A stretch of DNA of 64,000 bases from the NCBI RefSeq assembly GCF_000026545.1, contig NC_011601.1. One strand, given 5' to 3'. Under the pieces are notes generated by a model. It was not told the DNA's origin. It searched no databases and saw only the letters and a list, made by a program, of their open reading frames with translations. This DNA comes from Escherichia coli O127:H6 str. E2348/69 (GTDB taxonomy: Bacteria > Pseudomonadota > Gammaproteobacteria > Enterobacterales > Enterobacteriaceae). Below are positions 13,217 to 14,570 of the stretch, piece after piece (the first letter of the stretch is position 1; every line of letters begins with the position of its first letter). A program made the position numbers and the translations under genes.

Positions 13217-13292
13217 CCTTCTATAGTTGCAAAGCAAGATTTTTTTTCATCGTTGTGGCAGTGTATGATTTTTGGCACAATTGAATTCTCAT

Positions 13293-14453
13293 ATGGAGAT
13301 GACTGAAATGATCTTTGCTGCACGTTACTTGGTCGAGTTGCCTTATGTCCTCAATATTCCAGATGGTGATTATGATTTTCTATATGAAAATAACCATTTA
13401 CGCTTAACAGTTCACAACGATTACTATGCACTATTTAAAGATGCAAGCTTATTCCCTCAAACCCTATTAATCGGTACCAGAGAACAACTACTACCACATC
13501 ACACAAATGAAAGAGGGATAATGAAATGCCGGACTATTATTTCTCTCGCCAACTATTGGGAATGTTTTGACCTTTTAGAAATATCACATGAAGAACTAAT
13601 CAACTCTATAAGAAACCAAATAAGGAAAGAAGATAACTTCCCATCTGTGGAAGATGCTGAGATGCTCCTATCCAAAATGAGCCAGCAAGATATAGATAAA
13701 AAAATAGAGTTAGAGAGAAAAATAAAAACTGCTAGAGAGATATTTCCACCTAAAAGATCAGAGGAATGTATCGGAATAATAAACCACTTTATAAAACAGT
13801 ATAGAGTTGCCTTTAAAGATCAATTTGCAGACGAGATATCTCTTTATCAAGTTGGCTCAGGATTTACCAACGGAGTGTTACAAGAGCATTATTGCGATGG
13901 TATTAAGATAAGTGCAATTCCTTTAGTTGGAGTAATCACCCCATTAATGAGAGAAAGCTGGTATAAACACGATGAAAGTCTCATTGATAATTTCAAAAAA
14001 CGTTTAATGTCAAATGAATTCAATGAACATCCTGAACTATTATTGATTAGAGCAGACAATCTTGTTCATAAAGGTGCATTTAGATCAGCCGTAATTGAAG
14101 CATCAGCAGGCCTTGAAAGCTATATTCTCAGAAAAATTATTAATGCCTTTCATCGCAATGGTATCAATGAATGCCAGACAAAAGAAACATTAAATAAAAA
14201 CTGGAAGTTCGATGATAGATGTAAAAAACTATTCAAACAACTCTTTAACATCTCTGTACCCGAAATTGCGCCACTTGAGTGGCAACATGCAAATAAAAAC
14301 AGGAAAGAATTACGTGACAAAATAGCTCATACATCACATGAACCAACAGAGAAAGAAACAAAAGAATTTATAAAAAGCATCAATTTATTAATTGAAAAAA
14401 TAGACTCATACTTTAAGAAAATTAATGAATCTAACGAATCAAAAAATTTATGA
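13293..14453 (+). CDS. hypothetical protein, AT-rich orphan cargo gene with C-terminal HEPN-like R-x4-H motif (ELRDKIAH)
   Basis: Long uninterrupted ORF in very AT-rich DNA between phage tail genes. Possible starts are ATG 13293, 13299 or 13308 (GGAG lies 9 nt upstream of 13308). No resemblance to P2 structural proteins. A TATGAT -10-like hexamer sits at 13264-13269. Confidence 0.7.
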   Translation: MEMTEMIFAARYLVELPYVLNIPDGDYDFLYENNHLRLTVHNDYYALFKDASLFPQTLLIGTREQLLPHHTNERGIMKCRTIISLANYWECFDLLEISHEELINSIRNQIRKEDNFPSVEDAEMLLSKMSQQDIDKKIELERKIKTAREIFPPKRSEECIGIINHFIKQYRVAFKDQFADEISLYQVGSGFTNGVLQEHYCDGIKISAIPLVGVITPLMRESWYKHDESLIDNFKKRLMSNEFNEHPELLLIRADNLVHKGAFRSAVIEASAGLESYILRKIINAFHRNGINECQTKETLNKNWKFDDRCKKLFKQLFNISVPEIAPLEWQHANKNRKELRDKIAHTSHEPTEKETKEFIKSINLLIEKIDSYFKKINESNESKNL

Positions 14454-14498
14454 TTATCTCTTCTATAATATCAAAATCAGTATCATAAATTCCAAGTA

Positions 14499-14509
14499 AC
14501 CTACGTTTA
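14499..14509. repeat. right inverted repeat ACCTACGTTTA, candidate invertase crossover site
   Basis: Exact reverse complement of 9737-9747; located ~60 bp upstream of the invertase start, as for gix/hix sites next to gin/hin. Confidence 0.45.
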
Positions 14510-14570
14510 TGAAAATGCAGAGATAATGGCTAACTGGCATCATCCACGGTTTTTATTCAGGGGATTGATC

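Follow-up and report, generated by a model that had tools for sequence, protein, structure and literature searches.

The window analyzed here is a stretch of 64,000 nucleotides, and all positions refer to it. The region under study matches the enteropathogenic Escherichia coli O127:H6 E2348/69 chromosome at 100% identity and belongs to a P2-like prophage with genes from the capsid scaffold through ogr. It contains an AT-rich orphan gene (13308..14453, plus strand; protein accession WP_000575294) coding for 381 amino acids. We propose, with moderate confidence, that its product is a stand-alone prophage-borne HEPN ribonuclease, most likely a single-protein abortive-infection (anti-phage) system. 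The C-terminal part of the protein almost certainly has the HEPN fold, and its assignment as a catalytic-type HEPN domain is made with high confidence; ribonuclease activity of this domain is likely, and an anti-phage role is favored on balance. Judged by its sequence, the protein is a plausible variant of single-protein HEPN abortive-infection defense.

Two residue numberings are in use, one of 384 residues counted from the ATG at 13299 and one of 381 residues counted from the ATG at 13308; residue numbers follow the former unless stated otherwise. The N-terminal domain (13299..14027, plus strand; residues 1-243) is a candidate sensor or regulatory domain. It is mainly beta, with strands within residues 4-89, four helices, a two-strand hairpin and one further helix, and carries an ELP motif (E13, L14, P15) plus N162, Y168 and G192. 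This beta-rich domain has no solved structural relative. The C-terminal HEPN domain (14031..14450, plus strand; residues ~245-384) has an all-alpha core of four helices arranged as an up-down bundle, the fold of the HEPN superfamily, and its first helix bears RSAxxEASAxxE. The conserved Rx4-6H motif of the superfamily is represented by R339-x4-H344 (R336 and H341 in the 381-residue numbering), read directly as R-D-K-I-A-H at 14313..14330 on the plus strand.

An initial annotation of the window had singled out ELRDKIAH as a HEPN-type motif. The string is present in the protein, and its Arg and His proved to be invariant family-wide: R339 and H344 are retained in 20 close homologs, in 43 diverse homologs and in a distant subgroup of 20 sequences. 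The alignment of the 43 diverse homologs has a mean column identity of 33% and just seven invariant residues, R339, H344, R262, E13, P15, N162 and G192. The first HEPN helix holds the fully invariant R262 and the nearly invariant E267.

Only 82 relatives came out of an exhaustive phmmer search across 1.84 billion cluster representatives. The family is sparse and spread over several phyla, including Pseudoalteromonas, Vibrio, Corallococcus, Myxococcus, Paenibacillus and Gemmata, a distribution typical of defense genes. Full-length homologs of equal size reach down to ~20% identity, and the comparison of the orphan with its 72% homolog gives a ratio of nonsynonymous to synonymous polymorphism (pN/pS) of 0.21, with synonymous sites saturated. 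On these comparisons, the orphan is a real gene under purifying selection. Its open reading frame (ORF) is intact within an otherwise crippled prophage. The protein also has a full-length match to phrog_28299 (E 3e-277), a family of unknown function.

The distant subgroup (420-460 amino acids) has differing N-termini and keeps the invariant Arg and His. Its homology to the orphan family extends over residues ~153-384 (hhalign probability 100%, E 2.8e-49), with the Rx4H motif positions of both subgroups aligned. Of ten distant-subgroup members tested, six hit the HEPN half of PADLOC's Csx1/Csm6 model, the best at E 1.5e-7. Matches of the subgroup to the Pfam family HEPN_Apea are weak (one of 20 sequences at E 6.7e-4, three of 20 reaching 0.1), but no other Pfam family is matched by as many of its members. 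A Foldseek search against AFDB50 returned dozens of entries named "Apea-like HEPN domain-containing protein" with E from 1e-11 to 1e-9, 375-420 aligned columns and a template-modeling score of 0.5-0.57; these names are UniProt automatic names. The distant subgroup and the Foldseek matches thus support the HEPN reading, for which the initial annotation had asked for a remote-homology and fold check.

As seen in the sequences, the two subgroups suggest that sensor domains may have been swapped on a common HEPN module. The distant-subgroup proteins (P0072, P0081, P0083, P0087, P0088, P0091, P0093, P0094, P0096 and P0098 in alignment A5) share the last ~230 residues with the orphan family, comprising the linker helix, the hairpin and the HEPN domain. 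Their N-terminus is longer and different, with PYCLxxP instead of ELPFxLNLP.

Searches of the Protein Data Bank, both with the single protein and with a profile, found nothing. The 43-sequence profile run against a collection of 5.8 billion proteins added almost nothing and gave no Pfam-annotated match. The sole match among the Pfam and NCBIfam profiles, a marginal one to the CysRS catalytic domain (E 3.4e-4, residues 59-138), was rejected as a chance hit, because it falls in a poorly conserved stretch and is shown by only one of the 43 family members. No mention of the accession WP_000575294 was found in the searchable literature.

Three in-frame ATG codons, at 13293, 13299 and 13308, precede the stop codon TGA (14451-14453), in agreement with the starts and the stop originally listed. 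The third is most likely the start and yields the 381-residue protein. It is favored since a Shine-Dalgarno sequence GGAG (13295-13298) lies 9 nucleotides upstream, most homologs begin with MIF and RefSeq uses this start in E2348/69. The gene has a GC content of 33.2% (27.2% at third codon positions, GC3), compared with 56.8% (63.2%) in gpV and 56.9% (66.0%) in FI; the window-wide GC content is 52.4%. The most common residues are L (10.2%), I (10.0%), E (9.7%), K (8.7%) and N (7.1%). Hence the described AT-richness relative to flanking tail genes of ~56% GC holds, as does the Lys/Asn/Ile/Glu bias, these four being among the five commonest residues together with L. No likeness to P2 structural proteins emerged either, as expected from the initial annotation. 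The P2 morons (old/tin, Z/fun and orf30) are AT-rich, as the orphan is. The proposed separate horizontal acquisition is borne out, and on sequence evidence the orphan is a foreign, horizontally acquired AT-rich moron in an accessory slot of a P2-like phage.

The native position of this slot became apparent from the other carriers. The orphan was found in 20 genomes, namely three assemblies of E2348/69 and 17 others in which the match extends just up to position 14509. In one of the latter, NCTC11121, the gene order is R, S, orphan (on the opposite strand), V, W, J, I, H, the invertible tail-fiber segment, the invertase and FI. All 17 intact E. coli carriers, like three diverged homologous loci, have the orphan between V and S. 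The antisense V-S slot is likewise where homologs at 72%, 41% and 33% identity are found, in P2-like prophages from E. coli, Pantoea and a third host; this answers in the affirmative the question whether homologs recur at the same position. This is the orf30 locus of P2, located between the tail-completion gene S and the baseplate gene V and variable in content; together with TO and Z/fun it is one of three regions known for horizontally acquired genes (PMC3091744, PMC6823313). In a tblastn search of deposited phages, P2 presumably among them, no similarity of the orphan to P2 orf30 itself was detectable. The notion of a variable cargo slot in a P2-like phage therefore holds, whereas the suggested placement at Z/fun does not: that locus lies between the tail-fiber assembly gene G and the sheath gene FI, the orphan's native site is antisense between gpS and gpV, and the pre-FI position in this phage lineage is taken by the invertase and the invertible tail-fiber segment.

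The 3' ends of the orphan and S converge with an overlap of 23 nucleotides (14431-14453), as in intact prophages. Late transcription through S would consequently run antisense into the orphan and could down-regulate it during lytic growth of its own phage. In the three diverged loci (L003, L006 and L007) the convergent overlap is 8-35 nucleotides.

The S-V slot holds known defense systems in other strains. A search with joined V-side and S-side flanks located the region in 1,067 E. coli genomes, about a fifth of complete genomes. In a spread sample of 55 loci spanning both flanks, 28 are empty and 27 carry cargo in either orientation, with at least nine differently annotated kinds among the 27 loaded loci. 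Seven cargo proteins from six loci were scanned against PADLOC. They include AriA and AriB of PARIS (E 7.6e-39 and 4.1e-22), an AbiU-like AIPR protein (E 1.7e-24), a GmrSD/NsnA-like nuclease (E 3.2e-23), an OLD/AriA-like ATPase (E 9.9e-22), a TIR protein with a weak match (E 8.9e-7) and an Sll1717-type ATPase with no PADLOC match. The cargo coordinates are L017 2113-4213, L018 2139-3839, L019 2077-2877, L020 2279-4054, L021 2127-3638 and L022 2169-4127. Judged by these annotations, the orf30 slot acts as a defense hotspot in E. coli, and the orphan, regarded from the start as a single-gene defense candidate, indeed stands alone there. The 55-locus sample also contains DUF6216 and FRG genes as cargo. 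Experimental studies of P2 hotspots name just the A-Q and Z/fun loci (PMC9122126, PMC9519451), and a 2026 preprint mentions defense loci "within the late genes" (10.64898/2026.02.27.708500).

Distant homologs outside prophages add to this picture. One of them adjoins AbiEi/AbiEii. Another is located in a region with genes for a SIR2-like protein, a DUF87 (HerA-type) ATPase, a PLD-helicase and a helicase of 1604 amino acids.

The intergenic region between gpV and the orphan (13217..13307, 91 nucleotides) holds the Shine-Dalgarno sequence and a TGT-N12-ACA dyad at 13263-13280. The dyad is the most conserved upstream element and is invariant in four loci whose cargo has diverged down to 33% identity. 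Ogr-type activator sites in P2 late promoters have this form, and the dyad probably serves the divergent V promoter as its late-activator site, not the orphan. The dyad leaves very little room for a promoter of the orphan's own.

The only neighbors of the orphan are gpV and gpS or, in E2348/69, the invertase. The locus contains no Rfam family and no tandem repeat or repeat array, so that an RNA antitoxin of the ToxI or AbiF type is unlikely. Likewise, no partner ORF of at least 50 amino acids was found, except for two ORFs of 56 amino acids antisense within the orphan. Taken together, these absences make a type II or type III toxin-antitoxin system unlikely. A HEPN-MNT (HepT/MntA) pair was rejected, as no nucleotidyltransferase antitoxin gene is adjacent.

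The nearest described family is that of the Apea-like HEPN proteins, which show full-length Foldseek similarity to the orphan. ApeA (Gao et al. 2020; Pfam PF18739) is, like the orphan, encoded by a single gene and has a non-catalytic N-region followed by a C-terminal Rx4H HEPN domain. ApeA-NTD1 consists mostly of beta strands (PMC3710099), similar to the N-terminal part of the orphan. By analogy, the two probably follow the same logic of a sensor pocket that activates a ribonuclease, which in ApeA systems acts on tRNA or phage RNA; ApeA cleaves tRNA anticodon loops once its ligand pocket is filled (bioRxiv 10.64898/2026.01.26.701840). In contrast to ApeA, the orphan is not a family member detectable by Pfam or PADLOC profiles: it has no match to HEPN_Apea or ApeA_NTD1 in Pfam at E up to 10, and in no member of the 43-sequence alignment does HEPN_Apea score E 0.1 or better. 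The published description of ApeA also sets the orphan apart. Characterized ApeA proteins have ~560-580 amino acids and are mainly helical, with an N/Mid/split-HEPN architecture that contains insertions, and form ring-shaped decamers or dodecamers (bioRxiv 10.64898/2026.01.26.701840; for Ec1ApeA and Ec2ApeA see also 10.64898/2026.03.20.713152), whereas the orphan has 381 amino acids, a beta-rich N-domain and a compact HEPN domain.

Other HEPN systems are more different. HepS (PDB 9oik), the abortive-infection protein of the lambdoid siphophage Gifsy-1, consists of one HEPN domain (~218 residues) and assembles into tetramers (PMC13043305); it lacks the 240-residue N-domain of the orphan, and no sequence similarity between the two was detected. 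DARNA/PD-T7-3 was rejected because of its reversed domain order, with an N-terminal HEPN and a Pds5-like C-domain in 456 amino acids (bioRxiv 10.64898/2026.02.22.705581). The orphan also differs from PrrC and RloC, which carry ABC-ATPase domains, and from AbiA, which combines a polymerase with a C-terminal HEPN. The PADLOC models of DARNA/PD-T7-3, PrrC, RloC, AbiV and AbiA do not match the orphan.

HepS, DARNA and ApeA are single HEPN proteins that cut tRNA anticodon loops upon sensing a phage (PMC13043305; bioRxiv 10.64898/2026.02.22.705581; 10.64898/2026.01.26.701840). For the orphan we infer a ribonuclease activity, a trigger, an RNA target and a defense phenotype along similar lines. Being antisense to the late operon, the gene could rely on signals of its own for expression in the lysogen, where the late genes are silent. 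The C-terminal HEPN domains would dimerize to form a composite Rx4H active site, and the N-domain of ~240 residues would hold the nuclease off until a product of infection by another phage is detected. The trigger might be a phage protein or a ligand derived from nucleic acid. The active enzyme would then cut host or phage RNA and stop translation and phage production; the analogy with ApeA, HepS, DARNA and PrrC makes tRNA anticodon loops its most likely target. We speculate that, as in HepS, the orphan could respond to a virion-assembly protein made by competing phages and spare the variants of its own phage.

Several observations weigh against an anti-phage HEPN ribonuclease. No Pfam, NCBIfam or PADLOC profile detects the orphan. 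Its best PADLOC match is to a CARF-HEPN model at E 0.29; at E up to 1 none was obtained for ApeA, a model of which is presumably included in PADLOC v2.0.0. A tblastn search found no homolog in 50,697 deposited phage genomes or in 72,556 plasmids, and carriers of the orphan are rare (20 of 5,426 complete E. coli genomes). A scan for promoters detected no consensus sigma-70 site within the 91-nucleotide upstream region, and AT-rich DNA such as that of the orphan may be silenced in E. coli. The contexts of some other distant homologs are uninformative on function. Finally, not every HEPN domain is a nuclease.

Among the alternative explanations, the least improbable is a HEPN toxin that serves its own phage by addiction, by exclusion of P2-like phages or P4-type satellites, or by remodeling of host RNA. 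We regard it as unlikely. Such a toxin would equally have the HEPN fold and the invariant catalytic motif, and it would fit the retention of one P2-like position over deep divergence, down to 33% identity, as well as the overlap with the 3' end of late gene S, through which expression may be coupled to late transcription. However, neither an antitoxin-like gene nor a small ORF, RNA family or repeat array exists in or beside the locus, and the slot is empty in 28 of the 55 sampled P2-like prophages, so its content is dispensable for the phage. Moreover, the other occupants of the slot target foreign phages, and distant homologs occur outside prophages, beside other defense genes. Even less probable is a HEPN-like domain that is not a nuclease and has a ligand-binding, protein-binding or regulatory function, the gene being a lysogenic-conversion or fitness factor unrelated to defense. 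Strictly invariant Arg and His at constant spacing, as seen in ~60 diverged sequences, are a hallmark of catalytic HEPN domains (PMC3710099) and argue for a nuclease, and the neighbors both at the locus and around the distant homologs are defense genes, not virulence genes.

The explanation ranked lowest, and considered very improbable, is that expression or function of the orphan is phase-variable through the adjacent invertase. The initial annotation had raised this possibility, and the arrangement in the window does resemble a switch, with a block of 4.77 kb flanked by inverted 26-bp hix/gix-like sites that share an 11-bp core and with an intact invertase next to it. Yet each site is a hybrid that includes part of a degenerate pseudo-site, and the arrangement occurs only in E2348/69, while the 17 other carriers have the standard gene order. 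The orphan and its entire upstream region move together inside the block, so that flipping would not part the gene from its own upstream signals, and all three E2348/69 assemblies show one orientation. Homologs also reside in other prophages with no invertase nearby. Phase-variable expression of the orphan is thus not supported, and the prophage-borne HEPN ribonuclease with a defense role remains the preferred explanation.

What is new here is a HEPN family missed by the profile libraries, an N-domain with no solved relative and an under-studied P2 slot. It is possible, if still doubtful, that the orphan represents an unrecognized anti-phage system, that its N-domain is a new kind of infection sensor on a compact HEPN ribonuclease, and that the S-V slot is a further major hotspot. 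If true, the defense repertoire of E. coli would gain a compact HEPN system that consists of one gene and has an unexplored sensor domain, a gap in the PADLOC, Pfam and NCBIfam libraries would be filled, and the family could reveal how a prophage nuclease spares its own phage. With a defense role of the orphan, the S-V slot could become a minable anchor-defined hotspot beside A-Q and Z/fun. A HEPN candidate in a prophage hotspot will not surprise specialists; the prediction is clear and cheaply testable.

The position of the orphan next to the invertase in E2348/69 is explained by a rearrangement. BLAST comparison of the window with NCTC11121 showed that positions 8000-9747 and 14498-16500 align in one orientation and 9738-14509 in the other. 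The inverted block (9738..14509, 4.77 kb; 99.9% identity) comprises Hc (the constant portion of H), I, J, W, V, the orphan and the 3' end of S, and its flanks have the opposite orientation. The ~2-kb variable tail-fiber segment (including tfa) is absent from the E2348/69 prophage. S is split into a truncated pseudogene of its 5' part (9369..9747, plus strand), left by the inversion and described in RefSeq as incomplete with the C-terminus missing, and a detached 3' end (virion morphogenesis/tail completion; 14431..14509, minus strand), mapped from the NCTC11121 locus L002. The serine DNA invertase of the Hin/Gin/Cin type (14568..15137, plus strand) is intact, with the same protein accession as in NCTC11121. 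The reported adjacency thus stands in part: the orphan physically adjoins the invertase and FI, but this neighborhood is specific to E2348/69 and a product of the rearrangement.

Both junctions are hybrid crossover sites. The right one (14490..14515, plus strand; block overlap 14498-14509) reads TTCCAAGTAACC TA CGTTTATGAAAA and combines the left half of a pseudo-site in S with the invertase-proximal half of the genuine tail-fiber inversion site. A stretch of 73 nucleotides starting at this site recurs beside tail-fiber genes in 80 other E. coli genomes. The left one (9731..9756, plus strand), TTATGCTAAACG TA GGTATGTGAGAA, combines the other half of the S pseudo-site with the Hc-proximal half of the genuine site in H. 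The pseudo-site inside gene S of NCTC11121 reads TTCCAAGTAACC TA CGTTTAGCATAA, and its TA core is kept at both junctions (comparison coordinates in locus L002: 3552-3575, 5515-5540 and 10274-10299). The two 26-bp sites each match gix at 17 of 26 positions, are inverted and have the 11-bp core in common. The structure therefore has the two inverted 26-bp sites and the invertase in cis of a Hin/Gin/Cin-type segment, both sites being pseudo-site hybrids; two orientations with differing expression are not seen in the assembly data. The rearranged junction was found solely in E2348/69, in a single orientation in three of three assemblies.

The simplest reading is that the invertase inverted the block via the secondary site in S and that the variable segment was lost as well; the order of these steps and the mechanism of the loss are our reconstruction. 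The truncated S and a tail fiber with no distal part indicate a defective prophage, which should be unable to make functional tails. The E2348/69 prophage is a clear natural case in which a tail-fiber invertase used a secondary site within a phage gene. The tape-measure gene of the same prophage (17461-20538) is annotated in RefSeq as a frameshifted pseudogene, yet it is one uninterrupted ORF of 1025 codons in the window, equal in length to the intact NCTC11121 gene.

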